Source: a virus. Taken from it: DNA of 42,064 nucleotides. Positions within the stretch are counted from its first letter, which is position 1; every line of letters begins with the position of its first letter. The position numbers and the translations under genes were made by a program. The DNA lies in the UHGV virus genome UHGV-0178365; one strand, given 5' to 3'. Shown piece by piece: positions 1 through 15,866 of the stretch. The notes beneath the pieces were generated by a model. It ran no database searches. It was not told where the DNA came from and saw only the letters and a list, made by a program, of their open reading frames with translations.

Positions 1-59
1 TTTCTGTATCGCGGAACCAACACAAACACGCACGTTGCATGGCTGGCCGTCCTCTAGCC

Positions 60-77
60 TAGCTTTCCGTATCCCAG
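60..77 (+). repeat. Copy 1 of the 17-bp repeat TAGCTTTCCGTATCCCA(g); its TAG is a stop codon
   Basis: Exact match to copies at 378-394 and, inverted, at 1013-1029. One-mismatch copy at 41873-41889. Confidence 0.8.
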
Positions 78-101
78 GCCGCTGTTGGCAACTGGGCCAC
101 A

Positions 102-380
102 TTGCAAACATACGGCAAAATTGCCGTGCTGGATGTCGAGCTGATCATCACCGGGACAATGCAGCCGTGGCAAACCCTCAAAAACAGTGAGCTGCCGACC
201 GGCATCGCTGCGGCTAAGACTGCGTTCGGCGTCGTGGCGGTCGAAAGCTACGGAGAGGCGACTCTTGACGTCACGGTCGAAGGATCCAGGGCTTTTCTGC
301 GAAACAGGGGCGCTTCCGCCATCACGATGTCGCAGAAGGGAGCCTATGCTCACGGCCAAGCCGTGTTTTTTTTGGCGTAG
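102..380 (+). CDS. Hypothetical small protein, cassette ORF A. Start uncertain: TTG at 102 or ATG at the MQPWQ motif. Opposite strand to the tail genes.
   Basis: Open frame ending in the TAG of repeat copy 2. No recognisable domain. GC lower than the phage average. Confidence 0.3.
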   Translation: MQTYGKIAVLDVELIITGTMQPWQTLKNSELPTGIAAAKTAFGVVAVESYGEATLDVTVEGSRAFLRNRGASAITMSQKGAYAHGQAVFFLA

Positions 381-395
381 CTTTCCGTATCCCAG
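378..395 (+). repeat. Copy 2 of the 17-bp repeat; its TAG is the stop of ORF A
   Basis: Identical to copy 1. Confidence 0.8.
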
Positions 396-425
396 CGCGA
401 GCTGATATGGTCGGGAGCGTTCTTC

Positions 426-758
426 ATGCGGGCTACGCAGTCGATTCAGATCCCGAAGGGCGTCAACGCGTACTCCACAGGAATCATGCTCGTTTGGTCG
501 GCGTATGCGGACGGGGTGGCGCAGGATTACAACTTCCACAGCTTCATTGTACCTAAGGAGGTCGTTTCCAGTCATAACGGCTTTGGCCACAATTTTTTCC
601 TAGCCACGCAGTGGTTCAGCAGCTTCGCGGACAAGTACGTTTACATCAACGAGAACAGCCTGGTCGGGCACGAGAGGAACGATGCCTCGGGGACCGGCGC
701 TTCGGGGGTGGTGTACGATAACAGAGCATTCGTTTTGCGCGAAGTATGGGGCGTATAG
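426..758 (+). CDS. Hypothetical protein, cassette ORF B
   Basis: ATG preceded by GGGAG. Ends in the TAG of a partial repeat copy (756-765, tagctttccg). Lower GC than neighbours. Confidence 0.4.
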   Translation: MRATQSIQIPKGVNAYSTGIMLVWSAYADGVAQDYNFHSFIVPKEVVSSHNGFGHNFFLATQWFSSFADKYVYINENSLVGHERNDASGTGASGVVYDNRAFVLREVWGV

Positions 759-765
759 CTTTCCG
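756..765 (+). repeat. Partial (10 of 17 bp) copy of the repeat
   Basis: tagctttccg, then divergence. Confidence 0.5.
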
Positions 766-771
766 CGCTCG

Positions 772-1008
772 TCACGGAACGGCGATCCATGCGACCCGAG
801 GGCCGCGAGGGCCTTGCGAGGCGTTGGCGACGCAGATATCGAAGCCGTCCGTCGCAACGTTGCACGCGCAGACCGTCACGGATCCGTACACGTACGTCAG
901 CTCCGCATCCAGCGACGCTACTACGGCTGGTTTTGATTTGTACGGCTCTCCGAACGCGACATGCGTCATGCTCGTCCCATTCGGCGGGGCCTCGTTCGCT
1001 TTCATCAC
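772..1008 (-). CDS. Hypothetical small Cys-containing protein, cassette ORF C, co-directional with and immediately downstream of the tail-fibre gene
   Basis: GTG/ATG start 4-8 nt after the inverted repeat copy. In frame with the tail-fibre stop. Confidence 0.3.
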   Translation of the reverse strand: MMKANEAPPNGTSMTHVAFGEPYKSKPAVVASLDAELTYVYGSVTVCACNVATDGFDICVANASQGPRGPRVAWIAVP

Positions 1009-1012
1009 GCCA

Positions 1013-1029
1013 TGGGATACGGAAAGCTA
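1013..1029 (-). repeat. Inverted copy of the 17-bp repeat, 3 nt after the tail-fibre stop codon
   Basis: The plus strand reads tgggatacggaaagcta. The minus strand reads TAG gca TAGCTTTCCGTATCCCA. Confidence 0.8.
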
Positions 1030-1032
1030 TGC

Positions 1033-1848
1033 CTATATCAGGTAGTACGAGAACGTGCTTATTAAACGCGTCAAAGTCTTTTCCGCCTCCATGCTCCATA
1101 CTTTCATCGTGCCGTCTGACGACACCTCTGCAGCCGCATTAACGCTGTCTCCGCTGATTGGCAGACGCTGCCAGCTTCGCGGCCTCGCTATCTCGGGTAT
1201 GACGCATAGCTTGGCTCCGGACGTTCCGATCGACGTGCCGGAGACGTTCGCGAAGCCGACGACGAGCGTCCCGTACCGGACGAACCGAACCTTTCCCGTG
1301 CCGGTAGCGGGTGCAGCTTCCGCTACCTGGGATACGGAATTCCAAGCGTCCTTCGCAGAGGTGAATTCTTTGAAAAGCTGCACCGGCGTGCCGACCGTGA
1401 TGCCGTTAAGAGGGATGCGCCACAGGGGCATGTCATTCGCCAACGCGTTGCCGTTGAGGATGTCTCCGCGCGTGTACGACGGGTCGGCCGGCGTGCCGGT
1501 CGTGGGCGTGCCCTTGATGACGACGAGGCTCACGGACTCGACGCCCGTGGATGCGTTCTTGGCGTAGCGGGCCACCACCAGGTCGTTGCGTTTCTGGCTC
1601 TGCGTGCCGGTCTGCACCGTCAGGTCGACTCCAGCCGCGTCGACCCAGAAATGGCGACCCTGCATCATGGCGTTGCCGGAGGAGATATGCACCTTGTTGG
1701 ACGATGCCATGGTGGCCTTGAGCTTGTCGTCCTTGACGCCTGCGAACACGTACTCTCCGGAGCCGAGCGCCCCCGCGTTGAACTTCGCCACGTCGAGGGA
1801 CGAGATATGCGCCTTGCCCGTGAAGCCGGTTACCAGCTCGATGCCCAT
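1033..1848 (-). CDS. Putative distal tail fibre / receptor-binding protein; the last structural gene
   Basis: Position after the tail-fibre paralogs. Gly/Thr/Ser-rich. Start ATG at 1848 with GGAAGGAG RBS, overlapping the upstream stop (TAATG). Confidence 0.45.
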   Translation of the reverse strand: MGIELVTGFTGKAHISSLDVAKFNAGALGSGEYVFAGVKDDKLKATMASSNKVHISSGNAMMQGRHFWVDAAGVDLTVQTGTQSQKRNDLVVARYAKNASTGVESVSLVVIKGTPTTGTPADPSYTRGDILNGNALANDMPLWRIPLNGITVGTPVQLFKEFTSAKDAWNSVSQVAEAAPATGTGKVRFVRYGTLVVGFANVSGTSIGTSGAKLCVIPEIARPRSWQRLPISGDSVNAAAEVSSDGTMKVWSMEAEKTLTRLISTFSYYLI

Positions 1849-2081
1849 TATTGCGCTCCTTCCAGGTACGAGTTCACGGCCTTGTCGTTGGCCTCGGCCA
1901 CGGCCTTGTAGCCGGGGTAGCAGTCGGGGCACAGCGTGATGGTCGCCTCCACGCCGTCGGCGGTCAGGCGCTTCACCGTCTTCCAGGATCCCGTGCGGGG
2001 ATCGTTGCCCTGCAGGTACTCGACCGTGTCGCACGTCTTGCGGTCGCACGCGAGCCTGCTGTATCCGTCCGTCTTGGCCAT
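1848..2081 (-). CDS. Small zinc-ribbon-like protein (CxxC...CxxC)
   Basis: Four Cys in two pairs. Sits between tail-fibre genes. Confidence 0.35.
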   Translation of the reverse strand: MAKTDGYSRLACDRKTCDTVEYLQGNDPRTGSWKTVKRLTADGVEATITLCPDCYPGYKAVAEANDKAVNSYLEGAQ

Positions 2082-2091
2082 GGGGCCTCCC

Positions 2092-2559
2092 TTACTTCGT
2101 GCGCTTCCATTTGTACGGCCCGAGGCTGGGCTCCTGCTGCCAGGTGCCGCCCCAGGCCGTGGGGTTGGTTCCGTCGGTCTCCATGTACGAGCCGACCCGG
2201 TGGGCTGCCAGGAACATGGCCTGGTCGGTCGGCGGGATCGCCTTCAGCACGCCGTCGCCGTCCACCGTGGTGGTCGTGCCGTCCGGCCTGACCGCCCCTA
2301 TCGCCGTGGAGGTCGCCTTGTCCATCGCCTGATTGGGATGCACGTGGTCCGCGTTGGCCACGATGCCGTTGGCCGTGCCGGCGGAGGCCGTCCCGTTCGC
2401 AGCCGCGGCCGACGACGAGAGCTTGACGTGCCCGTAGCTGCCGGACGAAGCCGCTCCGTACGAGGTGTCGGCCGACGCGTGGCTCTTGGGGGCTAGCGTC
2501 GATTTCAGCTTGGCGACCAGGTACCGGAGCCCGTCGGCGGTCAACGCTTTGAAGGCCAT
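2092..2559 (-). CDS. Tail-fibre-like protein; N-terminal 22 aa paralogous to the next gene
   Basis: N-terminus MAFKALTADGLRYLVAKLKSTL versus MAIKVTSEGGLLYFLQKLRQLF of 2569..3405. Confidence 0.45.
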   Translation of the reverse strand: MAFKALTADGLRYLVAKLKSTLAPKSHASADTSYGAASSGSYGHVKLSSSAAAANGTASAGTANGIVANADHVHPNQAMDKATSTAIGAVRPDGTTTTVDGDGVLKAIPPTDQAMFLAAHRVGSYMETDGTNPTAWGGTWQQEPSLGPYKWKRTK

Positions 2560-2568
2560 GGGGCGCCC

Positions 2569-3405
2569 CTAGAACATCGCGTCGATGTCGGCGTTGGTCA
2601 CGGTCGAGAGGTCTGCGCTCTTGAGGTAGGGCGACAGGTCGACCATGCCCGCCAGCACGTCCCACATGTACGTGGTTCCCGACGTGTTGACGCACACCAC
2701 GTTGGTGCCCTTAGGGTACGTTTGACCTGCTCCCTCGACGAATGACGCCGTCGTGGTGAACGCGTTGGTGACGTTGTAGACCTTGCCGAGGTTTGCCTTC
2801 GACGGCGCGGGGAGGCTCGCGAAGGCGATGGATCCGGCTGGTTTGTAGGTGGAGCTCACGGCGCTCTCGATGGCCGACTGCAGCTCGCTCTTCGCTGCCC
2901 CGACGGCGCCGTCCACCGAGGACTGCACGTCGGCGGACGTCTGGTATCCGGAGTCGTTCGTCAGCTCGGACACCTTCGCGGGGACGTGGATCGCGGCCGC
3001 CTTGTCGTCAGCGTACTTCTTCGCGCTCGCGAGCGTCGCCTTGTCCCCGGCCGCGATATCCTCGCCGACCGTCGTCGCGACCGCGAAGCCGCTGTCGTTC
3101 GCCAGCTGGGACACCCTCGTCGGCACGTCGGCGGCCGCCGCTATGCCGAGGTCGGCGAGCGACTGGGATCCCTCGAGCGTCCTGCCGTTTATCGACGGCT
3201 TCGCCGTCAAATCGGAGTAGGAGCCGCTGAACACGTGGCTGTCCGCGTTCTCGATCTTCGCGACGAGACCGTCGGTCAGGTTGTTGTCCGACAGCACCTT
3301 GTACTCGCTCGACGAGCCCGTGCGCAGCTCGCGCGGAACGAACAGCTGGCGCAGCTTCTGGAGAAAGTAGAGCAGCCCGCCTTCCGACGTCACCTTGATT
3401 GCCAT
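2569..3405 (-). CDS. Tail fibre protein
   Basis: Repeated VSQLANDSGF / VSELTNDSGYQT motifs typical of phage fibres. Shares the KPSINGRTLEG motif with the upstream gene. Confidence 0.55.
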   Translation of the reverse strand: MAIKVTSEGGLLYFLQKLRQLFVPRELRTGSSSEYKVLSDNNLTDGLVAKIENADSHVFSGSYSDLTAKPSINGRTLEGSQSLADLGIAAAADVPTRVSQLANDSGFAVATTVGEDIAAGDKATLASAKKYADDKAAAIHVPAKVSELTNDSGYQTSADVQSSVDGAVGAAKSELQSAIESAVSSTYKPAGSIAFASLPAPSKANLGKVYNVTNAFTTTASFVEGAGQTYPKGTNVVCVNTSGTTYMWDVLAGMVDLSPYLKSADLSTVTNADIDAMF

Positions 3406-3995
3406 AGTCCGGTCCTTTCGGCCATCTTCTCGTTGAACATCGACTCGATCTCGACGTTTCCCAGCTCGACGACTCCGATGTCCTCGAGCGCCATGTCCCC
3501 CTCGAGCGTCCTCCCGCCGATCGACGGCTTGCCGACCAGGGCGGCGTAGTCCTTGGCCCCTCCGTCGACGATCAGCTGCCGCATCTCGTCCATCAGCCCG
3601 TCGAGCTCGGGGCAGTACGAGCCCGACTCGCCCGCGCCCGCGCTCTCGATCGACGGCAGCACCTCGATCGCGAACGGGCCGGCCGAGTCGACCGCGCCGT
3701 CTCGGACCAGGCGGAAGCAGGCTCCCTCGATGAGGCCCTCGACGGCCGACACCTGCGGCGGGAGCACGTACTCAACCACGCCGCCGGGCTTCGCCGCCGC
3801 CTCCTCGCGCACCCACGTGCCGTCCGGCTTGACCGCCTCGAACCTCGCCTGGGCGTGCGATAGGTCGGCCGGCTCCCCGCCGTCGAGGATATGGGCGCGC
3901 ACGACCGTAGCGTCGGCGTCGCCCCGCATCACGCGCACGGGGGGCCTGTCCCAGTCGGGCTTGCGCAGGTCGAGCCTTATGTCGCATACGTGCAT
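3390..3995 (-). CDS. Baseplate / tail fibre-associated protein
   Basis: C-terminal KPSIGGRTLEGDMALEDIG motif shared with 2569..3405. Position in the tail module. Confidence 0.45.
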   Translation of the reverse strand: MHVCDIRLDLRKPDWDRPPVRVMRGDADATVVRAHILDGGEPADLSHAQARFEAVKPDGTWVREEAAAKPGGVVEYVLPPQVSAVEGLIEGACFRLVRDGAVDSAGPFAIEVLPSIESAGAGESGSYCPELDGLMDEMRQLIVDGGAKDYAALVGKPSIGGRTLEGDMALEDIGVVELGNVEIESMFNEKMAERTGLWQSR

Positions 3996-4016
3996 CCGTC
4001 GATCACCTCGCAGCCA

Positions 4017-5021
4017 TTAAAGCGCCCTTGTCACCCGGCGAGAGGACGCGCCTCCCGCCTCGCACGAGGACGTCACCCCGCGCCTGCCGATGGTCACGAC
4101 CTTGCGCGCTATGGTCGCCGTCACGAAGACCCCGAGACGGCTCTCGCGCCCTCCCACGACGTCGCCGACGTCGAAGTCCGCGTTCGGCAGCTCCGGCACG
4201 TCGCACGTGCTCGCGTCCTGCAGCTCCTTGAGGCGTTTGATCCCCTCCTGCTCGAGGTCGGCGTCCTCGGCCGAGCTGTAGTCGTAGGCGCGCTCCACCT
4301 CGTCGATGCCGAACATGCTCTGCGTCTTGGACACGTTGCCCGACTCGTCTGCGTACAGGTCGATCACGGTCCTCTGGGCGAGCTCGCCCTTGCCTAGGCA
4401 CACGAGGTGGTTGACCGGACGGCTCGCCTGCTTGATCTTGATCGGCGTGCGCCGGCCCTCGAACTCCTCGCGCGACCAGTCGCGGCGCGGCATGGCCGAG
4501 AGCACCACCTTGCCGCCGTCCCAGCGCATGGCGAGCTTCGCGCCGGCGGACGCGAGCATGGCGCGCAGGCCCGCGTAGCCGGCGACGTAGCGCGCGAACC
4601 GGTAGCCGACGCGGATCCCGCTGTCCGACGCGTCGACGGCGAACAGCTCGGCGAGTCCCATCCTGTGGACGAGCTGCAGCAGCACGGCGTTGGCCTCGCC
4701 GGAGACGGACAGGTAGTCCGCGCCCCGGTCCGGGCGCAGCACGCGGCCCTCCAGCACGCCGTGCCACGTGCGCCCTCCGTACACGGCCTTATGGATCCTG
4801 CCGGTGGTGTCCGAGCCGACGTCGTCGACGATCCCTCCGTACTCGGTGCCGTCGACGTAGACGAGCGAGCCGAACGTCAGGCCCTCGGGCGCCGACGCGA
4901 CCGGCATCCGCAGCTCGAACGTATTGGCGTCGCCGCCCCCGTCGCCGAACTCCATGTCCATGGTGCAGTCGTCGAGCGCTCGCAGGTCGCGGCGCGACGC
5001 ATCGGTGCATATCAGGAGCAT
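4017..5021 (-). CDS. Tail-associated protein (Tal-like position)
   Basis: Start MLLICTD with GGAGAGGG RBS. Follows Dit. The longer ORF in the track is an overextension. Confidence 0.45.
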   Translation of the reverse strand: MLLICTDASRRDLRALDDCTMDMEFGDGGGDANTFELRMPVASAPEGLTFGSLVYVDGTEYGGIVDDVGSDTTGRIHKAVYGGRTWHGVLEGRVLRPDRGADYLSVSGEANAVLLQLVHRMGLAELFAVDASDSGIRVGYRFARYVAGYAGLRAMLASAGAKLAMRWDGGKVVLSAMPRRDWSREEFEGRRTPIKIKQASRPVNHLVCLGKGELAQRTVIDLYADESGNVSKTQSMFGIDEVERAYDYSSAEDADLEQEGIKRLKELQDASTCDVPELPNADFDVGDVVGGRESRLGVFVTATIARKVVTIGRRGVTSSCEAGGASSRRVTRAL

Positions 5022-5857
5022 GGCGGCGTGTCCCTCTCCGCGTAGACGGTCAGATCCCAGCCGAAGGCGTTGGACCACGACACCGACGATATTCCGGGGC
5101 GGACGCGCTCCCACATGTACTCTCCGGATCCCTCCTTGCCGCGGATGCGCCCGGCGAACGCGTCGGCCTCGTTCCCGTCGACGTCGCGCACGGTTATCGA
5201 CCAGTCGCGCGAGTCGGCCACGAGGATCCCTCCGTCGGGCACCTCGGCCTCGACGGCGTAGCGGTTGCCGGCGACGACCACGTAGGGGTCGGTCGCGGGG
5301 CCGTACACCACGAGCCTCCACTCGCACGGGCCGTCCGCATCGACGTCGATGCTGCGCAGGGGAGGGTTCGGCGTGTAGTCGTACGGGAAGCCGTACGGGA
5401 AATCGAGCTGCGTGCCGACTACGGCGGGGGAGCGGTCGGGCACGAAGGAGAACTCCTGGGCGCGCGTCCAGACCGGCCTCTCGGCGAGGAGGCGCACCAG
5501 CACCTCGCAGTACGACTCGTCCATCCACCATCGGTCGCGCTCGACGGCCACGGGCACGACCGAGAGCCGCCAGCCGCCTATGCCGATTGAGCCGGGAACA
5601 CCCGTCGATGCGTCGGCTGCGAGCACCGAGCGCAGGCGCTCGCGGGCGGCGAGGCCGTCCTCCCCGTCGGAGCCCTGCACCATGATCGGCAGCTCCCGCT
5701 CGGCCGGATCCCGCGTGAGCGGGCCGACCGAGCCGTTCTCCACCTCGTAGGCCAGCTCGGCGTCGAACAGCGTGTGCTTGCCGTAGTGGTAGACCGACTC
5801 GGGGCCGAGCTCCAGCGTCTCGCCGAGGTGGTTGGCGTACTCGATCCTCATGTCCAT
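5012..5857 (-). CDS. Distal tail protein (Dit, siphovirus tail component)
   Basis: Size and position immediately after the tape measure. Confidence 0.55.
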   Translation of the reverse strand: MDMRIEYANHLGETLELGPESVYHYGKHTLFDAELAYEVENGSVGPLTRDPAERELPIMVQGSDGEDGLAARERLRSVLAADASTGVPGSIGIGGWRLSVVPVAVERDRWWMDESYCEVLVRLLAERPVWTRAQEFSFVPDRSPAVVGTQLDFPYGFPYDYTPNPPLRSIDVDADGPCEWRLVVYGPATDPYVVVAGNRYAVEAEVPDGGILVADSRDWSITVRDVDGNEADAFAGRIRGKEGSGEYMWERVRPGISSVSWSNAFGWDLTVYAERDTPPCS

Positions 5858-8731
5858 CTAGCCCACCCCCAATGCCCTTCTCGCGCCGCGCGCGTTGGAT
5901 ATCGTCACTTCGTCCGGCGAGTTGTCCGCGATCTTGCGCCCGAGGCCGCGATCGAGCCTGTCGACGCGTTCGGTGAGGCGCTCCACTGCGTCGACGATCC
6001 TGCCGGATTCGCCGCCGTCCTCCTTCGGCTTGCGTCCTCGAGGCGACGAGGGCGAGGATCCCGACCTGGCGAGCGCCGCGTCGAGCGCGAACGCGGCGGA
6101 CGACGGAGCGCCGATGCCCGGGAAGTCCGGCACGTCGAACTCCACAGGCACCTCCACGGCGGGCACGTCCATGTCCGCCGCATCGTACACGTCCTCGGCC
6201 ATGGAGCGCATCGCGTCGACGGCCTTGTAGGCTGCCTCGTCGATGCCTTTGGCAAGGCCCTCGTCTACGAACACGCCGATCTTGCGGAAGAGCTTCGACG
6301 GGCTTGCGATTCCCAGGAACGACAGCACCGCGTTGACGCCGCCCGACACAGCGTTCACCGCCGCGCTCACGACGGACCCGGCTGCGCGGCCTATGCCGTC
6401 CACCAGGCCCATGAGCATGTTGTAGCCGGCCGAGGCCAGGCTGCCGGCGAACGAGGCGACCGCGCCGGGCAGCTGGCCGAGCAGCGACCGGAGCGCGCCG
6501 AGCAGCGACCCCGCGATTCCGGGCACGGCCTGGACGATCATGCCGAACAGCTGGCCGGCCGCCGATCCCAGGCTGGGCATCCACGAGCCCACGGTGGAGA
6601 GCACCTGGCTGATCAGCTGGGGCAAAGACGAGATCAGCTGCGGCACCATCTGCAGGAAAGCCGAGACCAGAGCCTTGAACAGGGTGAACCCGGCTTTGAG
6701 CAGGGCCGGTGCGTTTTTGACCAGGATTCCTACCAATTTGCTCACTAAATCGGGCAGCAGAGGGGTCAGCTGGGGGACCATCTCGGCGAAGGCCTCGACC
6801 AGTGCGATGAAGAGCTGCAGCCCCGCGTCCAGGAGCTGCGGAGCCATGGCAACGAGCATGGTCGCGAGCGCCGTGACGAGCTGGACCACCCCGTCGATCA
6901 GCGCCGGCATGATCGTCGGCAAAATCCCGACGACCTGGAGAAACGCCTGCTGGATCGCGGAGAGGAAGGCGGGCAGGTTGTCCACCACCTGCGAGACCAG
7001 CGTGGGGAGGATCTGAGACGCCTGCTCAGCTAGAACCGGCAGATTGGCGGTGATCTGCTGCATGTTGGCAACGAAATCGTCCGCCATCTTCTTCAGGTCG
7101 GCCCCGCCGGCGGCGGCAGCCAGGCCTAGGCCGAGCAGCCCGGTCGCGGCCGCCCCGAGCACGCCGGTCGCCACGGCCGCGCCCTTGGCGAGCCCGCCGG
7201 CTGCCTGTCCGACCTTGCCGAGGGCGCCCTTCGCCTTCTCGGCCGGGCCCGACAGGTCGAGCTTGGCGGCGAACGTGTCCACGGCGTTCTTGGCAGACTC
7301 GCCGAGCACCGACGTCAAACCGCCGACCTTGTCCTTGATGGGGGCGAGCTTCGCTCCGACGGCATCCGAGATGCCCGAGAACTTGGACGCGATCTTGTCC
7401 TTGACCCCGCTGAAAGCCTCGGCGATGTCGTTCTTGGCGTCGCGGAACCCGTAGGCGAGATCCGTCGACAGCTGCTTGGCCGTATCGAACGCGGACTGCG
7501 GGATCAAGCCGTGCGCCAGGCTCCGAGTGAAGTCCTTCGCGGCCGGCAGCGCGGCTCCGAGGATCCCGGACGCGAACTCGCCCGCGCCCTTGGCGGCGGA
7601 TTTGAGCGTCCCTGCGGCGGATGCAACCCCGGACGCGAGCGCGCCGATGGGACCTATGGCGGTGCCGACGAGGGACACGGCCTTGCCAACAATCACGAGG
7701 CCGGGCCCTGCCGCCGCGAGCGCTACCAGCGCCTTAACGATGGCAGCGAATGTCGCGGGATCCATTTTCTCGATCCCACCCGCGATCTTCTCCAGGGCAT
7801 CGCCGACGGCTGAGGCCATGGGCTCGATCGACAAGCCCGCATCGCTCCATTTCTTTGATGCCGCGTCGATGATCGCTGTGGCCTGCTGCACGATGCGGGT
7901 GAGCGAACCGAGGAACTTCGACGATTCGGCATCGGTGGTGCCGTACTCGCCGATGACAGCCAGGCCGAAGTTTCGGATCGAGGACGTCATGGAGTCGCAG
8001 GCGCCCTTGAACGTGTTCTTCAACTCGCCCATCATGCCGCCCATACGAGCGGTTTGGCCGGCCATGCCGTCGGTGCCTTCCTCGATGCCCTCGGCCAGCG
8101 CCTGGATGGCCCATCCCGACTCCACCGCGCCGTCGCTGATGGCCTCCTTCATCTCGTCGATGGATCTGCCGGACTTGTTGGCCAGGATCTGCAGGGCCTG
8201 CACGCCGTTGTCGGACAGCGACCATATCTCCTCAAGGGACACCTGCCCCTGGGCCTGCATCTTGCCGAGGGCGGCGGTGATGGCGCCGAACCCCTCCTGG
8301 CCCTTGCCGGACGCGGCCGCCGCGTCGCCGACGGCGGTGAGGGTCGGTATCACGTTCTCGGCGGCCATGCCCATGGATATGAGCTGCTGGGCGCTCTGCA
8401 TCATGCCGTCGAACTTGAAAGGGGTCTTCTTCGCGAACGTGTAGAGGTCGCCGATCATCTTGGAGGCGGCCTCGCCGCTCCCGAGCATGGTGGTGAACGC
8501 GGTCTGGGCAGACTCGCGCAGGCTCAAAAAGCTCACGGCGGTGCCAACCGCCGCCGTGCCGATGCCGACGATGGGGGCCGTAACGGCCTTCGATATGCCC
8601 TTGCCGAGCGACTGCAGGCCGTTGCCGAGCGCGGCGACCTGCTTCTTGGTCGATTCGGTGATAGAGGAGACAGCCGCCCGGTAGCGCGACGCGTCGCCCG
8701 TTATGTCGATTACTACCTGGCCGTCAGACAT
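5858..8731 (-). CDS. Tail tape measure protein
   Basis: 957 aa, Ala/Gly-rich helical repeats, position between chaperones and Dit. Confidence 0.85.
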   Translation of the reverse strand: MSDGQVVIDITGDASRYRAAVSSITESTKKQVAALGNGLQSLGKGISKAVTAPIVGIGTAAVGTAVSFLSLRESAQTAFTTMLGSGEAASKMIGDLYTFAKKTPFKFDGMMQSAQQLISMGMAAENVIPTLTAVGDAAAASGKGQEGFGAITAALGKMQAQGQVSLEEIWSLSDNGVQALQILANKSGRSIDEMKEAISDGAVESGWAIQALAEGIEEGTDGMAGQTARMGGMMGELKNTFKGACDSMTSSIRNFGLAVIGEYGTTDAESSKFLGSLTRIVQQATAIIDAASKKWSDAGLSIEPMASAVGDALEKIAGGIEKMDPATFAAIVKALVALAAAGPGLVIVGKAVSLVGTAIGPIGALASGVASAAGTLKSAAKGAGEFASGILGAALPAAKDFTRSLAHGLIPQSAFDTAKQLSTDLAYGFRDAKNDIAEAFSGVKDKIASKFSGISDAVGAKLAPIKDKVGGLTSVLGESAKNAVDTFAAKLDLSGPAEKAKGALGKVGQAAGGLAKGAAVATGVLGAAATGLLGLGLAAAAGGADLKKMADDFVANMQQITANLPVLAEQASQILPTLVSQVVDNLPAFLSAIQQAFLQVVGILPTIMPALIDGVVQLVTALATMLVAMAPQLLDAGLQLFIALVEAFAEMVPQLTPLLPDLVSKLVGILVKNAPALLKAGFTLFKALVSAFLQMVPQLISSLPQLISQVLSTVGSWMPSLGSAAGQLFGMIVQAVPGIAGSLLGALRSLLGQLPGAVASFAGSLASAGYNMLMGLVDGIGRAAGSVVSAAVNAVSGGVNAVLSFLGIASPSKLFRKIGVFVDEGLAKGIDEAAYKAVDAMRSMAEDVYDAADMDVPAVEVPVEFDVPDFPGIGAPSSAAFALDAALARSGSSPSSPRGRKPKEDGGESGRIVDAVERLTERVDRLDRGLGRKIADNSPDEVTISNARGARRALGVG

Positions 8732-9353
8732 CCAATCCCCAGAGCAGGCTGGTGAGCCTCAGCCGCTCCTCTTCAGTCCTCGCAGGCAGCGCCAGCTCCC
8801 GCTGCCTCTCGACCAGCCGCCTTCTCGCGTCGCCCTCGTACTCGGACGGGTCCGCGCCCCTCGCGGCCATGGCCGTCATTGTGAGCGACGAGTCACCCAG
8901 GCCGCGGAACAGCGGCCAGAAGCGCCACCAGTGCATGTCGAGCGCCGGATCCGTGAGGTCGATGCCGTACTCGCGTTGGAAGTCCGCGATGACGCGCGGA
9001 GCGTCGTAGTCCCAGTCCCAGAGCCTCGCCCCCTTCGCGGCGGCCTTGCCGAGCATGCGCTTGGGCTTCTGCGGCTCGTTGAGGTTGAGGAACCCTAGCG
9101 CCGCCTGGAGGGCGCCCGGCGGGTCGGCGTTGACGGCGTCGGGCAGCTCGATCCTGCGCACTCCGTCGTGGACCGCCCCCCGGCCGAAGTAGATCAGCAG
9201 GATCGCCTGCGCGCGCCCCGTGTCTCCCAGGTCGGGATCGTCGGCGGCCTGCATGGCGCGGATCCCGGCGCGGAACGACGTGGCGATGGAGACGGGCGCG
9301 CCGCCCACCTTGACGGAGGACGGCGCGCGGCCAAGGACGATGTTGGGATCCAT
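8724..9353 (-). CDS. Tail assembly chaperone-like protein (gpT position)
   Basis: Directly upstream of the tape measure. No RBS. Frame offset by one from the preceding gene. Confidence 0.4.
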   Translation of the reverse strand: MDPNIVLGRAPSSVKVGGAPVSIATSFRAGIRAMQAADDPDLGDTGRAQAILLIYFGRGAVHDGVRRIELPDAVNADPPGALQAALGFLNLNEPQKPKRMLGKAAAKGARLWDWDYDAPRVIADFQREYGIDLTDPALDMHWWRFWPLFRGLGDSSLTMTAMAARGADPSEYEGDARRRLVERQRELALPARTEEERLRLTSLLWGLDV

Positions 9354-9357
9354 GCGC

Positions 9358-9744
9358 CTACTCGGACGCTTCGGCGGCGTCCCAGTCCACGTCGGGCAGG
9401 TACTTGGCCAGGTTGGCCCGGAAGCCCTCGTCGACGCGGCTCTTGGTCACCTCGGCGTAGAGGTAGGCGAAAAGCTCCAACCCGTCGATGAAGTCGAACT
9501 TGCGAGACTTGAAGATGTCGGCGAACTGCTCGTCTCCGAGCAGCGCCTTGAGATAGCCGCGCACGTCCTGCGCGAGCAGCGCCATGCGGCCGCTGTCGCC
9601 GGCCAGCTGAGCGTAGTCGACGCGACTCAGCTTCGCGCTCCACTTCTCCACCTTGTCCAGCACGTCCGCGTCGCCGAGGTTGATCTCGTACGCCTTGCCC
9701 TCGATCTCGACATCCACCGTGTGCTTGGAAAAAGTAAAACCCAT
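9358..9744 (-). CDS. Tail assembly chaperone (gpG-like)
   Basis: 128 aa, acidic C-terminus, between major tail and tape measure. Confidence 0.5.
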   Translation of the reverse strand: MGFTFSKHTVDVEIEGKAYEINLGDADVLDKVEKWSAKLSRVDYAQLAGDSGRMALLAQDVRGYLKALLGDEQFADIFKSRKFDFIDGLELFAYLYAEVTKSRVDEGFRANLAKYLPDVDWDAAEASE

Positions 9745-9780
9745 GTCTAACCCTCCTGATCTGGTCTCTGTCTATACGTA

Positions 9781-9819
9781 GGAGGGCGCGGTGAAAGGAG
9801 TAAGCCCGCGCCCTCCGGA
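9781..9819 (-). terminator. Stable hairpin (10-bp perfect stem GGAGGGCGCG / CGCGCCCTCC) after the major tail gene
   Basis: Inverted repeat seen in sequence. No clear U-tract. Confidence 0.4.
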
Positions 9820-9827
9820 ACGCCTTG

Positions 9828-10346
9828 CTATCCCTGCGGGCCCGCCTCGGGGACGGACGGCGCCTGCCCTGCGGGCGCGAACGCCTTGGCCGACGCGTCC
9901 CACGTGCCCTCGGTCCACGCCTCGTCGCTCATGTTGAACGTGCCGGCGCTGGTCACGGGCTGGCCTTGGTTGGAGTTGGAGTGCGGGTTCGCGGTGAATT
10001 TGAACGCCGCCTTGTCGGCGAGCGCCTTGCCGGACTCGTCGAGCTTCCAGGTGTACACCTTGGCGATCTCGCAGGGCACGTCGAGGTCGTTTCGATGCTT
10101 GAAGATCCACTCGTCGAGCTCGCCGTCGCGCACGGTGTCCTTCTCCATGTTGATGGAGCAGGATCGGCCGTAGGTGAGCGTCGGCGGGGTCTTCCGGTCG
10201 ATCCATGCCGGCTCGTATGTCTTCGACTCGCCGGACTGCTCCCAGCTGAGCAGCTCGGTCGCCTTGACCCATTTCGGGGCCTCGGGCGTGCCGATGTTGA
10301 TGTAATTCTCGAGCTCGTAGCCCCACGCGACGTCTTCGTTCGCCAT
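9828..10346 (-). CDS. Major tail protein
   Basis: 172 aa, position upstream of chaperones, followed by a hairpin. Confidence 0.55.
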   Translation of the reverse strand: MANEDVAWGYELENYINIGTPEAPKWVKATELLSWEQSGESKTYEPAWIDRKTPPTLTYGRSCSINMEKDTVRDGELDEWIFKHRNDLDVPCEIAKVYTWKLDESGKALADKAAFKFTANPHSNSNQGQPVTSAGTFNMSDEAWTEGTWDASAKAFAPAGQAPSVPEAGPQG

Positions 10347-10361
10347 GGACGAGCCTCCTTC

Positions 10362-10820
10362 CTATCGCTGCGTCTTGTATTTGACCACCAGCGTCACCCG
10401 GTAGTCGGTGGTTCCGGGCGCCGCCTGCACCCTCGCGGGCAGCGTCCCGGCCTCGATCTCGCGTAGGCGCGCTCCCGGCCCGAGGTCGAGCGAGTACCCT
10501 GCGGACGGATCCGCGAGGGATCGCACGGCGGCGCAGAGCGATCGCAGGATCTCCTGCGCGTCGAGCCGCTCGGCGGTGTCGTCCGCCGCCTGCCGCAGCA
10601 CGAGCGCGACGGGCAGCCGCCAGACCGTCCCGCCGTCGAGGTAGCGCCGCTCGATCGGATCGCCGTCGAGCACCTGCATCGACACGCACGGCAGCTCCGA
10701 GCGGTCGGTCGGCAGGTACTCGTACTCGCACCGCAGGCCGGCCGGTGAGGACAGCACGAGCGCCTCGACGGCCCCGTACAGCCGCTCCACCACGTCGGCC
10801 CGATCCACGTCACCTTCCAT
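10362..10820 (-). CDS. Tail terminator / neck protein
   Basis: Position between the connectors and the major tail. Confidence 0.35.
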   Translation of the reverse strand: MEGDVDRADVVERLYGAVEALVLSSPAGLRCEYEYLPTDRSELPCVSMQVLDGDPIERRYLDGGTVWRLPVALVLRQAADDTAERLDAQEILRSLCAAVRSLADPSAGYSLDLGPGARLREIEAGTLPARVQAAPGTTDYRVTLVVKYKTQR

Positions 10821-11175
10821 TTGCCACGCCTCCCGCCTGGGTCCCGGCTATCCTGATCCACTTGCTGATGTTGGCCGCCTTCGCCGGGTCGAACCATTGC
10901 ATGCACGTGCCCGGCCAGCGCTTGTTCGGCAGCCCGTAGTACTGCGCCCGCGCGTACGGCACCGACGCGTTGCCCCAGACGAGCAGCCCGTCCTCCGGCA
11001 CGCTCTCGGTCTCCGCCGTGCCCCTCAGGTGCCCGTCGAGGTACGGCACGTAGGGCTTGCAGTCCTCGCGGGCTGCGAGCGTCACCCCGGTCGTGACGGC
11101 CCGCTCCATGCCTTTGGCCTTCGCGATGGCGCGGGACAGGTCGCAGCTTCCGAGCTTCGCCGAAACCTTCATCGC
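10810..11175 (-). CDS. Neck / head-tail protein
   Basis: Real start MKVSAKL. The remainder of the track ORF is an Arg-rich artefact. Confidence 0.35.
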   Translation of the reverse strand, partial: AMKVSAKLGSCDLSRAIAKAKGMERAVTTGVTLAAREDCKPYVPYLDGHLRGTAETESVPEDGLLVWGNASVPYARAQYYGLPNKRWPGTCMQWFDPAKAANISKWIRIAGTQAGGVANGR

Positions 11176-11510
11176 GCCGTCGCCTCGTAGTGGTCGACCG
11201 CCCGCCCTCGGCGCACCGGCTCCACCGACTCGACGGCGAGCGCCTGCGGCTCTGGGCCGGGGGACGACGACGCGCCGAGCATGGCTCGGTCGCCCCTGCG
11301 CGGCTCCCACGACGTGCCGCATCCGCCCGTGCCGCGGGGGACGAGCAGGCGCGCCTCGTCCCTCGCGGAGTCCTCCATGCCGGAGCTCTTGGCCCTGGCC
11401 TCGATCCACCTGACCCCGCGCAGGACGCGCCTGGCCCACACGGCGCGGCGCTCGCCGTCCTCGCCGTCGCGGCGCCACACGGTGACGGTGTGCGGGTACG
11501 CGCGGCTCAC
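11169..11510 (-). CDS. Head-tail joining protein (GTG start overlapping the upstream stop as GTGA)
   Basis: YPHTVTVWRR...G motif region typical of head-tail joining proteins. Carved from the overextended ORF 11169..12482. Confidence 0.4.
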   Translation of the reverse strand: MSRAYPHTVTVWRRDGEDGERRAVWARRVLRGVRWIEARAKSSGMEDSARDEARLLVPRGTGGCGTSWEPRRGDRAMLGASSSPGPEPQALAVESVEPVRRGRAVDHYEATAR

Positions 11511-11848
11511 AGCCAGGCCCCGTAGAGGATCCGACCCGGCGCCTGCGCGAGCATGCGGTCGATAGCCCGGTCCACCGACATCGACGCGGCGTCCACGAGG
11601 CGCTCGGACACGCCGCCGGCGGTGTAGGACGATGCCGCCGGGTCGGCTAGCGCCTCGCAGGCGGCGCACACGGCGCGCTTGTACGCGTCGATCTCGCCGT
11701 CCGGCATCGCCGACAGGTCGCGGTGCGCGATCCTCTCGTCGACGCGCGCCTCGGCGTCGGGCAGGACGGCCTCGTATTCGTCCTGCCCGAGCCTGCCGGA
11801 TCCGCACTCCGCCGAGTACCATGCGTATGTCGGGGCGTGGCCGAGCAT
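11507..11848 (-). CDS. Head-tail connector (gp6-like)
   Basis: 113 aa directly after the major capsid. Confidence 0.4.
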   Translation of the reverse strand: MLGHAPTYAWYSAECGSGRLGQDEYEAVLPDAEARVDERIAHRDLSAMPDGEIDAYKRAVCAACEALADPAASSYTAGGVSERLVDAASMSVDRAIDRMLAQAPGRILYGAWL

Positions 11849-11851
11849 CGC

Positions 11852-12748
11852 CTAGCCTGCGGGGTTCTGCGCGGGCGTTGCCGACGGGGCCTCGATGGCG
11901 CACACCACGATGCCGTCCATGACCTCGGCGAACAGCTTGGAGCCGGTGAGCACGGTCGTCTTCGTGGTCAGGTCGTCGTAGTCTACGGTTCGATGCACGC
12001 CGATGAGGCCGGTCGCGTCGGTGACGAACTCGAACGCCTTGGCCACGTCCCCGTTCTTGGGGTTCGTGTAGTAGAGGATGATGTTGTCCTTGGCCGTCGT
12101 GATGACCTTGCCCTTCGGCACGCCGGTGTACACCAGCACGTCGTAGATGCCCAGGAACGCCTCGAGGTAGGTCATGCCGAACGCCGTCTGCACGGTGACG
12201 TCCTTCTTGGCCAGGTACTCGCCGATGTCCTCGGGGTTGACGAAGTAGAGGTAGCCGCTCGCGTCGGTGTCCTCCCACAGCACCTGGTTCTTGGTCCAGC
12301 AGGCGGCGAGCGCGCCCTGCAGGCCCTCGCCGGATGCCGCGCCCGTGCCGGTGGGCAGGAAGTCGAAGAAGTCCTTGCGGATGCCCTCCTGGACGTCGCG
12401 CAGCATCTTCGCGTCGGTGTCCTCGACCGCCTGCTCGTAGCCCTTGTCGTTGATGGCCTCGTAAGAGGTCTGCTTGCGCCACTTCTTGAGCTTGAGCTCG
12501 AAGATCTCGCCGACATCGGTCTTGTACTTGGACAGGGGGATGACCTCGCCCTCGGCGACGTTGCCGTCCTCAAGCTTGCCGGTCACCTTGTAGGTCTTCA
12601 CGACCTGGCCGGGCTTCTTCTCGATCCTGCGCGTGATGCCGAGCAGCTCGGCGAGCTGGTTGATGTTCGTCTCGAATCGCGCGGCGAAGTCGACGGCGCT
12701 CACCTTCGCGAAGTCCGCCGCCTTCTGCATGTTTGCGTCTGCAGGCAT
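11852..12748 (-). CDS. Major capsid protein
   Basis: 298 aa after the scaffold. HK97-like size and composition. Confidence 0.65.
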   Translation of the reverse strand: MPADANMQKAADFAKVSAVDFAARFETNINQLAELLGITRRIEKKPGQVVKTYKVTGKLEDGNVAEGEVIPLSKYKTDVGEIFELKLKKWRKQTSYEAINDKGYEQAVEDTDAKMLRDVQEGIRKDFFDFLPTGTGAASGEGLQGALAACWTKNQVLWEDTDASGYLYFVNPEDIGEYLAKKDVTVQTAFGMTYLEAFLGIYDVLVYTGVPKGKVITTAKDNIILYYTNPKNGDVAKAFEFVTDATGLIGVHRTVDYDDLTTKTTVLTGSKLFAEVMDGIVVCAIEAPSATPAQNPAG

Positions 12749-12760
12749 GTTTTTTTCTCC

Positions 12761-13357
12761 TTACTCGAAGAGATCCATGTGCTCGGCGATCTTCGCCCGG
12801 CGCTCGGCCGGGTCCTTGATCGCCATGATCTCGTCCTTGGTCATCTTCTTGACCGGGCCGCCGGGCGTCGCCGCCGAGCTGACCACGGTTTCCGCGTCGA
12901 ACAGGTGGGGGTAGGACTCCTTGACCTTGGCGACATCGAGGCCGGACACGTGCCCGTCCTTGGCCACGTCGATGCCGTCCATGTCCAGGTGGGCGATCGC
13001 GCCCACGGTGTCGCTGCATCCCGCGGCGATCAGCGCGTTCTCGACCACGAGGGACTTCTCGCGCTGCTTCCACGCGCTCTCGGCGGCGTCAGCCGCCTTC
13101 TTGGCCTCGCCTTGCGCCTCCTCGACGGCGGCCTTCACGTCGTCCTCGGTAAGGGCTTTGGCCAGGCTGTCGTTGAGGTCTTTGAGCTGGCCCTCGGCCT
13201 CCTCGGCGCGCTTCTTCCAATCGTCGCGCTCCTGGGTGAGGCGCGCGTTCTGCGCTTTGAGGTCGGGCTCGCCCTTGGCGCCGCCCTCGCCGCCCGGCTG
13301 CGGGGCGTTCTGCTGGTTAGCGCCCGCGGGGCCGGGCTCGGGATCCTGTTTTTCCAT
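12761..13357 (-). CDS. Scaffolding protein
   Basis: Acidic coiled-coil protein between the head morphogenesis genes and the capsid. AGGAGCAGG RBS. Confidence 0.7.
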   Translation of the reverse strand: MEKQDPEPGPAGANQQNAPQPGGEGGAKGEPDLKAQNARLTQERDDWKKRAEEAEGQLKDLNDSLAKALTEDDVKAAVEEAQGEAKKAADAAESAWKQREKSLVVENALIAAGCSDTVGAIAHLDMDGIDVAKDGHVSGLDVAKVKESYPHLFDAETVVSSAATPGGPVKKMTKDEIMAIKDPAERRAKIAEHMDLFE

Positions 13358-13491
13358 CCTGCTCCTATCGTCGTGTTTGGTACGCGCTTCCCTGCGCGCT
13401 TGACGCGCCCCTCTCCGCTCGGGGCCGGCGAACGATGCGCCTCTTCGCTCGGCGCTCGCGATGGCAGCATGATGGGGGAGGTGTCACCGCG

Positions 13492-13725
13492 TCACCCGTC
13501 CGGCTCGTACGTGCCGTGCTCGCCGCATCCGTCCTTCGGGTGCATGCGCGGCCGCAGCTGCAGCGCCGAGCCGTCGGCGAGCACGTAGACCTCGGGAGGG
13601 TACCGGCGGCACTCGACCAGGCCGTCCTCGTCGACCCGGCTGGCCCAGACGCAGCTGGCGCATGATATGTCCTCGGGGAGCGCGTTCGTCATGCCGGAGA
13701 TGATGGGAGATGCGTCACCGGGCAT
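13492..13725 (-). CDS. Small Cys-rich hypothetical protein
   Basis: 77 aa. Its start overlaps a copy of the junction motif. Confidence 0.3.
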   Translation of the reverse strand: MPGDASPIISGMTNALPEDISCASCVWASRVDEDGLVECRRYPPEVYVLADGSALQLRPRMHPKDGCGEHGTYEPDG

Positions 13726-13767
13726 GGAAAAGCCGCCCCGTAGGGCGGCTCATGCGGACGATTGCCG

Positions 13768-15477: not shown

Positions 15478-15486
15478 GATCCCTCC

Positions 15487-15828
15487 CTAGAAGATGTGGA
15501 CGCACACGGGATCGCTTATGACGACCTCACCCTCGTCCTCGCCAACCTCGTAGTCGTTGCCGCACACGATGGCGACGTGCTCGCCGAAGTAGAACCCGTG
15601 GATCGGGCTGTGGTCGTCGGCGTGCATGTCGATGCGCGCGCTCTTGACGGTGGTAGCCGACAGGCCGTCTATCTCTTCCTCGGTATCCTCGCCGTCGTTC
15701 CATACATGGGAGAGGTGGTCGATCTCGCCGAGCTCGAACGGCTCTTCCTGGGTGCGGATCGCGACTACGGCGTACTCGCCGATGTACTGCTTCGCTGCTT
15801 CCCTGATCTGCTCGATGCTCGGCTTCAT
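15487..15828 (-). CDS. Hypothetical acidic protein (start at MKPSIEQ)
   Basis: First gene after the AT-rich promoter island. The upstream ATG at 15864 sits inside a TATAAT box. Confidence 0.35.
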   Translation of the reverse strand: MKPSIEQIREAAKQYIGEYAVVAIRTQEEPFELGEIDHLSHVWNDGEDTEEEIDGLSATTVKSARIDMHADDHSPIHGFYFGEHVAIVCGNDYEVGEDEGEVVISDPVCVHIF

Positions 15829-15866
15829 CCTCTTGCCTTTCCTCGTCCCTTTCGATGCACTCATTA

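Follow-up and report, generated by a model that had tools for sequence, protein, structure and literature searches.

The 42,064-nucleotide virus genome UHGV-0178365, the whole stretch of DNA that was analysed (hereafter the window), very probably carries a multiple-inversion system (shufflon) of the Rin type, that of a temperate phage like those of Eggerthella lenta clade 1. We describe the anatomy and reading frames of this locus, the family of its recombinase, breakpoints within its repeat cores, several natural arrangements, five fusions to a constant N-terminus and the fold of its receptor-binding protein (RBP). The original prediction, made from the sequence alone, had proposed shufflon-like switching driven by a recombinase, which our data support, and had not recognised the arrangement as a known one. 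The system and its repeat are, however, already published, and the locus is no new kind of element. Rin shufflons were reported in the dnaJ2-integrated prophages of Bifidobacterium breve/longum (PMC6109161; Mavrich et al., 2018) and in E. lenta clade-1 prophages, where the repeat is 5'-ttccgtat-3' (PMC8778435; Buttimer et al., 2022). With the clade-1 phages the window shares a size of ~41-42 kb, a GC content of 67% and a tRNA-Leu attP (PMC8778435). The attP string published for the clade-1 prophage 1001095IJ_161003_H5phi1 was found in the window, and CP089331.1, from the E. lenta clade-1 lysogen APC055-529-1D, encodes an identical Rin protein. The two ends of the window join inside one of the cassettes described below (D), the sequence being circularly permuted. 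The locus of a near-identical phage, L001, is contiguous over window positions 78..41870 at 99.3% identity, and no terminal redundancy that would explain circularisation of the window was found. A nucleotide search with positions 1-4000 against GenBank phages returned nothing matching the shufflon. Its sole match, 158 bp at 71-72% to Faecalibacterium phages, lies in the neighbouring gene.

Repeat sites of the locus

A 12-bp core, TTCCGTATCCCA, occurs in five exact copies, all inside 41878..1339 across the window junction. All cassettes begin with this core, which is read in frame as S-V-S-Q/H (TCC GTA TCC CAG/CAT). The 8-bp core TTCCGTAT is likewise confined to this one locus, with five copies in the 42-kb window against 0.40 expected, a count reached in none of 100 shuffles. 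The first of the rix sites, at 41873..41889 (plus strand; core 41878-41889), consists of TAGTT and the core, lies beside the recombinase gene rin and starts cassette D. The sites at 60..76 (plus; core 65-76) and 378..394 (plus; core 383-394) both read TAGCT followed by the core; the former marks the 5' end of cassette A, whereas the latter supplies with its TAG the stop codon of A and starts cassette B. Each of these three sites is a breakpoint relative to L001. A fourth site, again TAGCT plus core, is found at 1013..1029 (minus; core 1024-1013), 8 nt past the stop codon of the expressed gene (1035-1033). The remaining core lies within the tail gene at 1328..1339 (minus), at the constant/variable junction after codon 170, where the frame reads TGG AAT TCC GTA TCC CAG (W N S V S Q), and is a breakpoint relative to L001-L004. 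The tail-gene copy of the repeat spans 1328-1340 (minus) and reads ATTCCGTATCCCA.

The original prediction had described a 17-bp repeat, TAGCTTTCCGTATCCCA, which proved real and non-random: exact copies are present at 60-76 (plus), 378-394 (plus) and 1013-1029 (minus), and the first ten bases, TAGCTTTCCG, recur at 756-765 (plus). Three repeat-linked elements had been missed, namely the copy at 1328-1340 (minus), the copy at 41877-41889 (plus) by the recombinase, and the fifth cassette, D. The partial copy at 756..765, comprising the left arm and the initial 5 nt of the core, separates cassettes B and C, which are convergent, and is probably a decayed rix site. No breakpoint falls in it, B and C being arranged tail-to-tail in 11/11 comparable loci. 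The proposed coincidence of the repeat's TAG with the ends of open reading frames also holds, TAG 378-380 being the stop of ORF A, TAG 756-758 that of ORF B, and TAG 1029-1027 sitting 3 nt beyond the tail-gene stop at 1035-1033. The repeats had been placed at ORF 3' ends and not at a constant/variable junction. Instead, each copy forms the in-frame 5' end of the next cassette, and the junction is at 1328-1339. The left arm of the silent sites is TAGYT, giving a conserved unit of 17 bp; it contains an in-frame TAG, in place of which the constant part of the tail gene (Rc) has TGG. The TAG ends the cassette before it and prevents read-through; conserved as it is, it may be a designed insulator.

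The position of the repeat after stop codons, and a terminator-like hairpin close by at 351-373, could be read as signs of a generic terminator, a REP-like element or an integron attC-like element. Against this reading, the five sites fold no better than shuffled sequence (z -1.3 to +0.9), and terminator-like sites are not enriched (2 vs 2.2 expected). Moreover, a scan of 2.9 million viral contigs for the 17-mer yielded 18 stretches, with multiple copies in shufflon loci only, and we give a generic element of this kind next to no probability. Half of these stretches (9/18) adjoin homologues of Rc or Rin; outside the locus, copies of the repeat are rare in both the window and the viral contigs scanned. 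An obvious dyad symmetry was not seen in the rix site.

The receptor-binding protein and its stored heads

The tail gene (1848..1033, minus strand) is a single RBP gene composed of the constant Rc and a swappable C-terminal head. Rc, the N-terminal 170 codons (1339..1848, minus) of the whole gene (1033-1848), is supported by PHROG matches, public proteins and fold. The PHROG matches to the RBP cover residues 1-178 only, and in public proteins N-termini that are at least 95% identical bear at least 12 different C-termini. In the AlphaFold model, the Rc domain is confident (pLDDT ~90, residues 20-165), a low-confidence linker (171-187) falls at the core-encoded residues, and the head adopts a beta-sandwich of moderate confidence (pLDDT 50-79). 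A Foldseek search with the RBP model retrieved the RBPs of p2 (E 1.6e-8) and 1358 (1.5e-4), and the head matched the RBP heads of TP901-1 (E ~0.02-0.04, probability 0.99) as well as those of p2. In the model, the expressed protein resembles lactococcal RBPs of the p2/1358/TP901-1 type. The suggestion that the cassettes provide alternative receptor-binding tips is supported. A search of the full RBP sequence against PDB chains gave no match, the fold search alone being informative, and Pfam assigned no family to Rc-V, A or B. Matches to Flavi_NS2B and Cry1Ac_dom-VII, weak and below the cut-off, were disregarded.

Five heads are stored in the locus: V, which is expressed, and C, B, A and D. Cassette V (1033..1338, minus; SVSQVAEAAP...SYYLI-stop) is inverted and silent in L001. 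Silent cassette C (772..1023, minus; 83 aa, SVSHGVMKAN...WIAVP-stop) is in frame with its core and has the orientation of the tail gene. On the plus strand follow the silent cassettes B (384..758; 124 aa, SVSQRELIWS...VWGV-stop), supported by an Rc-B fusion, and A (66..380; 104 aa, SVSQAAVGNW...FFLA-stop), in frame with its core. Silent cassette D, also on the plus strand, begins at 41879..42064, leaves the window end in frame and by translation continues at 1..57 with 18 codons and the stop TAG 55-57. Its H-type lectin domain was matched at 27.4 bits (cut-off 24), and cassette C gave a weak match to the same domain. Pairwise identity among A, B, C and D and with V is 12-25%. The lower GC content previously attributed to the cassettes was borne out (0.575 vs 0.665 for the whole window). 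A shared G[TI]M..W[SQ] motif was recovered in A, in B and in the C-terminus of the tail protein, and nowhere else in the six frames, but ORF C, which had been said to carry it, lacks it.

The original prediction pictured the cassettes as independent small genes, encoding chaperones or tips, with the repeats at their 3' ends; inversion would orient whole ORFs with the late transcript, and ORF C alone would be expressed. Indeed, an ORF finder assigns each cassette a start codon of its own (TTG 102, ATG 426, GTG 1008), and the TAG of the repeat provides the stops of A and B. However, the cassettes are all open from the core up to the first start codon, in the phase used in Rc, so that five cassettes and Rc share one common phase through the core, and a junction copy of the repeat lies inside the tail gene. 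Furthermore, each of the five cassettes is known fused to Rc in a full-length protein, and no arrangement that was observed calls for free-standing genes. Public data contain Rc-V as P0002, Rc-A as P0003 (274 aa, 154 member sequences) and Rc-B as P0006 (294 aa, 193 member sequences). Rc-A is also present in L089, L090, L091, L093, L096 and L097, Rc-B in L001 at 100% identity, and Rc-D fusions are represented by P0012, P0001, L002 and L095. Cassette C, presumed to be the expressed one, is silent in the window; Rc-C fusions occur in P0008 (253 aa) and L092. Independent genes are highly improbable given these data. Rather than flipping whole ORFs behind the late transcript, inversion fuses the 170-aa N-terminus to a new C-terminus. 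Besides the five stored heads, at least seven others are found on Rc at least 90% identical (most at least 95%).

Arrangements in related phages and the role of Rin

In eleven loci from near-identical phages, whose parts are 97-100% identical, one set of five cassettes is arranged in 10 different orders. The scored set comprises the window, L001 and nine of the ten further loci with an identical Rin; the tenth, L089, was left unscored on account of an extra A cassette. All 10 orders fall among the 48 of 384 signed arrangements that can be reached by inversion between inverted sites, and the observed orders are 1-4 inversion steps away from that of the window. Blocks shared with L001 at 99-100% identity end at 1327-1339, 383-394, 57-78 and 41870-41889, all in cores, and every breakpoint mapped at base level lies within the 12-bp core. 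The sequences on either side of the core are exactly reassorted among the window and L001-L004. The switching by inversion between inverted repeat copies that had been predicted is thus reflected in these orders and in-core breakpoints.

A fossil array that no longer recombines, its differing database orders being assembly errors at the repeats, might be suspected from the several contigs that stop in or near the locus and from a scaffold gap in L003 at the locus. A repeat of 12-17 bp is, however, shorter than reads and assembly k-mers, and should not mislead an assembler. The 10 orders, all compatible with inversion, come from long contigs (0.24-3.5 Mb) of both isolates and MAGs. In addition, rin is intact and 100% conserved across 4221 index blocks, and variants within a culture have been described for the Bifidobacterium system (PMC6109161). 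A dead array is accordingly exceedingly unlikely. One junction outside rix, in L003 (552 joined to 41722), was rejected, the scaffold gap there being a single N.

We propose that Rin recombines two inverted cores, whereby the intervening DNA would flip. If the core inside Rc is involved, Rc would become joined in frame to another head, and the receptor specificity of the virion would change. Inversions between silent sites would reshuffle the store, such that all heads could become accessible. The convergent B/C pair acts as a pivot, hence 48 states, 10 of which were seen. The arrangements differ between assemblies; within one lineage, switching may reach an appreciable frequency.

The gene rin (40976..41875, plus strand) encodes a 299-aa XerD-like tyrosine recombinase, with a predicted catalytic Tyr at about residue 263, and ends with a TAG at 41873-41875, 2 nt before the rix core. 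The protein matches Pfam Phage_integrase (2.2e-15), Phage_int_SAM_3 (1.8e-8, from residue 10) and the PHROG integrase, and its closest solved relatives are XerD and XerC-like. It has no N-terminal arm-binding extension; the phage's own 437-aa integrase, to which Rin is 29% identical, has ~74 extra N-terminal residues. Rin is 41% identical to the gene at the rin position of Bifidobacterium phage PMBT6.

That Rin is the catalyst is suggested by its position next to the sites and by relatives in which Rin homologues and repeated cores are found together. Alternatively, the inversions could be real and have another enzyme as their catalyst, be it a Gin/Cin/Min-type serine invertase, the phage's own integrase or a recombinase that the host supplies in trans; the role of the adjacent recombinase would in that case be a different one. 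A second tyrosine recombinase is indeed encoded in the window (37160-38473), and gut bacteria are known to have invertases that act in trans, one such bifidophage locus being discussed in PMC6109161. That second recombinase is the integrase adjoining attP, the placement expected for a role in integration, and a serine-recombinase catalytic motif (Y-x-R-V-S-x-x-x-Q-like) is absent from all open frames of the window. The outermost site lies directly beside rin in the window, L001, L004 and 9/10 further loci with identical Rin, the exception being L089, where an exact core beside rin was not found. Of 69 loci that contain Rc homologues, those with a clearly repeated junction core (at least 5 copies) are mainly loci that have a Rin homologue no more than 4 kb away; cores were counted here as exact 9-mers, and in some loci with Rin homologues the core is too degenerate for this count. 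This search was anchored at the Rc junction and replaced a de-novo counting of 10-mers, which was swamped by the collagen-like repeats of an upstream gene. Taken together, a catalyst other than Rin is very unlikely.

Relation to known systems and to host range

The closest counterpart is the Rin shufflon of E. lenta clade-1 prophages, which is the same system and shows no difference in kind (PMC8778435). There, too, Rin precedes small Rv genes, of which some encode an H-type lectin domain, and the larger Rc, and ttccgtat adjoins each Rv, lies inverted past the Rc stop and recurs within Rc. To that description, our analysis adds the 12-bp core in a fixed phase, the in-core crossover, the B/C pivot with its 48 states, and at least 12 head types per Rc. 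The Bifidobacterium system (PMC6109161) likewise combines an Rc of ~168-170 aa with Rv of ~80-125 aa, one rix within the gene, another right after the stop and the rest upstream of silent Rv, and a XerD-like tyrosine invertase at the far end; its RBP also resembles those of the lactococcal phages 1358 and TP901-1. As the Rin-shufflon layout requires, the in-gene and post-stop cores of the window are both on the minus strand, that is, in direct orientation. The Rv heads are 6-30% identical to one another in Bifidobacterium (PMC6109161) and 12-29% here, and the rix cores, TTCCCTAACCC in Bifidobacterium (PMC6109161) and TTCCGTATCCC here, agree at 9/11 positions. Rin is ~40% identical to the Bifidobacterium type (B. 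saguini prophage, B. thermophilum phage PMBT6), and the host class differs (Coriobacteriia vs Bifidobacteriales).

More distant systems resemble the locus in part. The Min (p15B), Gin (Mu), Cin (P1) and Pin (e14) systems also exchange tail-fibre C-termini by inversion at a constant/variable junction, but they employ serine invertases, crossover sites of ~26 bp and a Fis-dependent enhancer, whereas the recombinase here is of the tyrosine family. We rejected a serine-invertase tail-fibre switch for the family of the adjacent recombinase and the lack of a serine motif in the open frames of the window. In the shufflon of plasmid R64, the tyrosine recombinase Rci acts on 19-bp sfx sites to exchange the C-termini of pilV through multiple inversions; the sites are short and asymmetric, only inverted pairs recombine, and a constant adhesin N-terminus is combined with alternative C-termini. 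The likeness to R64 is one of mechanism only, in the tyrosine recombinase, the short asymmetric sites that recombine as inverted pairs, and the constant N-terminus with exchangeable C-termini. R64 differs in being plasmid-borne and in targeting the tip of a conjugative pilus instead of a phage RBP, and its sfx sites are not known to be related in sequence. An integron, which has an IntI-type integrase, an attI site and complete genes as cassettes that end in hairpin-forming attC sites, was also rejected: the sites here show no better-than-shuffled folding, and what the cassettes encode are C-terminal fragments that are joined in frame to Rc.

It is conceivable, though we consider it rather doubtful, that Rin/rix also swap cassettes between co-resident phage genomes, beyond flips within one genome. 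Several observations hint at such exchange: Rc at least 90% identical (most at least 95%) bears no fewer than 12 types of head, whose mutual identity is 12-29%; L004 has Rc and Rin 98% and 99.7% identical, respectively, yet another set of cassettes within the same cores; the A cassette is duplicated in L089; and the GC content of the cassettes is 9 points below that of the phage. If this were the case, the locus would in part be a cassette-capture system fed by a large shared pool.

As a discovery the locus adds little, since system and repeat are already in the literature. Its use lies in the exact definition of the site, a 12-bp core in constant codon phase, and in the 48-arrangement state model with the convergent B/C pair as pivot. 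Annotators should be aware that the small 'genes' of such loci are silent gene segments and that assemblies tend to break or differ here. For the phage, one gene gives access to five receptor-binding heads, and at the population level to a dozen or more. The heads may differ in receptor specificity, which would make the locus relevant to the host range of E. lenta phages and to the phage-host dynamics of a drug-metabolising gut bacterium.

Repeat sites and cassette boundaries

The exact 17-mer TAGCTTTCCGTATCCCA was found at 60-76 (+), 378-394 (+) and, inverted, at 1013-1029 (-), and its first ten bases form a half site (TAGCT + TTCCG) at 756-765 (+), where cassettes B and C converge. All of these copies had been listed in the original prediction, which overlooked two further copies of the 12-bp core, one within the tail gene (ATTCCGTATCCCA, 1340-1328 (-)) and one close to the far end of the window (TTTCCGTATCCCA, 41877-41889 (+)). 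The 8-mer TTCCGTAT occurs five times against 0.40 copies expected in 42,064 bases, a count reached in 0 of 100 shuffles, and window-wide counting confined all five copies to one locus. In the proposed search of other phage genomes, covering 2.9 million viral contigs, the 17-mer TAGCTTTCCGTATCCCA is rare, half of its matches adjoin homologues of Rc (the constant part of the receptor-binding protein, RBP) or of the recombinase Rin, and it is multi-copy in shufflon loci only. Regarding other roles for the repeat, a hairpin-forming site was rejected because the sites fold no better than shuffled sequences (z -1.3 to +0.9), and a terminator because terminator-like sites show no enrichment.

In every copy, the core keeps the same phase relative to the downstream ORF (x-TT TCC GTA TCC CAG/CAT, encoding S-V-S-Q or S-V-S-H). 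Because the reading frame of each cassette is open from its core on, the repeat marks their 5' end and not, as had been proposed, the 3' end of the ORFs. The remark on stop codons was accurate, with TAG 378-380 ending ORF A, TAG 756-758 ending ORF B, and TAG 1029-1027 lying 3 nt past the tail-gene stop at 1035-1033; silent sites have this TAG in their left arm, which reads TAGCT or TAGTT, and the cassette downstream is in frame with it. Contrary to the earlier view that no copy sits at a constant/variable junction, the tail (RBP) gene (1848..1033, minus strand, 271 aa) has precisely such a junction at the core following codon 170 (TGG AAT TCC GTA TCC CAG).

In tail-gene orientation, the order is Rc > V > C > < B < A < D < rin, where V is the head now expressed. 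Cassette D (41879-42064 + 1-57) starts at the core 41878-41889, crosses the window end without a change of frame, resumes at position 1 and has its stop at 55-57. Related contigs, including L001, are contiguous across the window ends, indicating that the window is a circularly permuted genome; it has no terminal redundancy of 10-100 bases. The locus is flanked by tail genes (BppU_N protein, 3390-3995) on one side and the lysis module (endolysin, 39042-40034) on the other. The GC content of the cassettes is 0.575 vs 0.665 for the window, the lower value that had been claimed. At 351-373 (+), within the last codons of cassette A, a hairpin (CACGGCCAAGCCGTG) and a stretch of eight T together resemble a terminator, which would lie at the late transcript's end only with A as the expressed head; the regional count of such sites is not above chance. 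In the neighbouring 278-aa tail gene (2569-3405, minus), the 3' part (2633-2790) shares 71-72% nucleotide identity with the Faecalibacterium phages Roos and FP_Taranis, whose hosts belong to another phylum.

Cassette order in related loci

Viral contigs were searched with the constant part Rc. The related locus L001 is 99-100% identical to the window, yet its order is Rc > B < C < V < D < A < rin. The blocks shared by the two end at window 1327-1339, 383-394, 57-78 and 41870-41889, placing every breakpoint in a core. A comparison of the window with L001-L004 shows exact reassortment of the 14-base flanks left and right of the core, which locates the crossover inside TTCCGTATCCCA. The exact Rin protein sequence was looked up and matched in ten long contigs, from isolates as well as metagenomes, among them CP089331.1 from Eggerthella lenta APC055-529-1D. 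We scored 11 loci, namely nine of these ten contigs, the window and L001, leaving out L089 with its extra A cassette, and found the same five cassettes in 10 different orders. In a model that permits inversion between any two sites of opposite orientation, 48 signed orders can arise out of 384 conceivable ones; the observed orders fall within these 48 without exception (10/10), 1-4 inversions away from the window. Cassettes from Rc to the convergent B/C pair point in the Rc direction, and those from the pair to rin in the opposite one. B and C are always tail to tail, indicating that the half site at 756-765, never a breakpoint in the 11 loci, is not used; it is probably a decayed rix, as the repeat sites are termed.

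The locus disturbs assembly, as seen from several other contigs that end within the shufflon. Assembly error is unlikely to account for the differing cassette orders, given that the repeat is only 12-17 bp long and that the orders follow the inversion rule. An apparent junction of cassette B with the rin 3' end (L003 5248-5250) was rejected as a scaffold gap (single N) in an isolate assembly. The originally proposed recombinase-driven cassette switch holds, with its geometry misread.

Exchangeable heads of the receptor-binding protein

A protein search with Rc (at least 95% identical) retrieved full-length proteins exactly matching all five predicted fusions: Rc-V (271 aa, P0002), Rc-A (274 aa, P0003), Rc-B (294 aa, P0006), Rc-C (253 aa, P0008) and Rc-D (250 aa, P0012). 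At least seven more head types occur on the same Rc, giving a pool of at least 12 heads that are 12-29% identical to one another, except for the allele pair P0010/P0011 (83%). The locus L004 (1560-3354), with an Rc 98% and a Rin 99.7% identical to those of the window, carries six cassettes, of which only V and A are in common; the other four match heads fused to Rc elsewhere (P0005, P0010 and P0013 types). In L004, cassette turnover has thus taken place with the same cores as its limits. In L089 (5400-7755; E. lenta assembly GCA_046992205.1), cassette A has two copies, one silent and the other joined to Rc; either an artefact of assembly or unequal recombination between molecules at rix could explain this. 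Such turnover in near-identical phages hints at intermolecular exchange.

Sequence methods were of limited use: Pfam assigned no family to Rc-V and placed cassette D above the H-type lectin threshold. In an AlphaFold model of the expressed RBP, built on 71 homologues, the N-terminal domain is confident (pLDDT about 90, residues 20-165), the low-confidence linker 171-187 coincides exactly with the core-encoded residues, and the C-terminal head is a beta-sandwich. By Foldseek, the model resembles two lactococcal phage RBPs, that of p2 (E 1.6e-8) and that of 1358 (1.5e-4), as well as the TP901-1 head, which was matched with probability 0.99. Based on these matches, the exchangeable part of the modelled protein would be the counterpart of the receptor-specificity head domain of those phages, in line with the suggestion of alternative receptor-binding tips. 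A six-frame translation of the entire window contains three matches to the peptide motif G[TI]M..W[SQ], all in heads (A, 153-173 (+); B, 480-500 (+); V, about 1113-1093 (-); residues about 30, 33 and 77, respectively), against a chance expectation estimated well under one. The motif had been ascribed to all three ORFs and the tail C-terminus; the same translation confirmed it for A, B and the current tail C-terminus, and ORF C lacks it.

Recombinases and relation to known shufflons

The ORF at 40976-41875 (+) encodes Rin, a tyrosine recombinase (Pfam Phage_integrase, 2.2e-15; SAM-like core-binding domain from residue 10) whose nearest solved proteins are XerD and XerC-like. The rin stop codon precedes the core 41878-41889 by 2 nt, and Rin is the predicted catalyst of inversion. 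The phage's own integrase (37160-38473 (+), 437 aa, lambda-type tyrosine integrase) is 29% identical to Rin and adjoins attP at 38508-38532, an attP-type 3' fragment of tRNA-Leu; the attP published for E. lenta prophage 1001095IJ_161003_H5phi1 has the identical sequence, and ARAGORN found no complete tRNA gene. No serine-recombinase motif was detected in the window. The 69 loci that encode an Rc homologue show clearly repeated cores at the junction mainly where a Rin homologue lies within 4 kb; these cores are TTCCGTATC, AATCCGTAT in Slackia, ATTCTGTAT in Collinsella, and of TTCCCTA(A/G)CCC type in others. About 2200-3330 upstream of the Rc homologues in L009-L064, many Collinsella-type phages carry collagen-like GXY repeats, with a repeated 10-mer CCTGCGGGCC, in the gene that precedes the RBP gene. 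Rin and a repeated junction core are both absent from most of these loci, which leaves their RBP fixed.

The arrangement, originally regarded as undescribed, is a Rin shufflon and already known. In the system described from Bifidobacterium prophages (Mavrich et al. 2018, PMC6109161), Rc has 168 residues and the Rv cassettes have 95-100. The rix spans 11 bp (TTCCCTAACCC) and is found before every Rv, once within the gene and once directly behind its stop; the invertase is XerD-like, of the tyrosine type. A Rin shufflon with H-type lectin domains in the Rv genes was also reported for E. lenta clade-1 prophages (Buttimer et al. 2022, PMC8778435); the window agrees with these phages in size, GC and attP, and its Rin is identical to that of one strain in that paper. 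The R64 Rci/sfx shufflon and the Min/Gin/Cin switches work alike, but the present system is a member of neither family, as recombinase type or target differs. To the known Rin shufflons, our analysis adds a 12-bp core in fixed phase, the in-frame TAG in the arms of the silent sites, the B/C pivot, a 48-state model with 10 states seen, and a pool of at least 12 heads.
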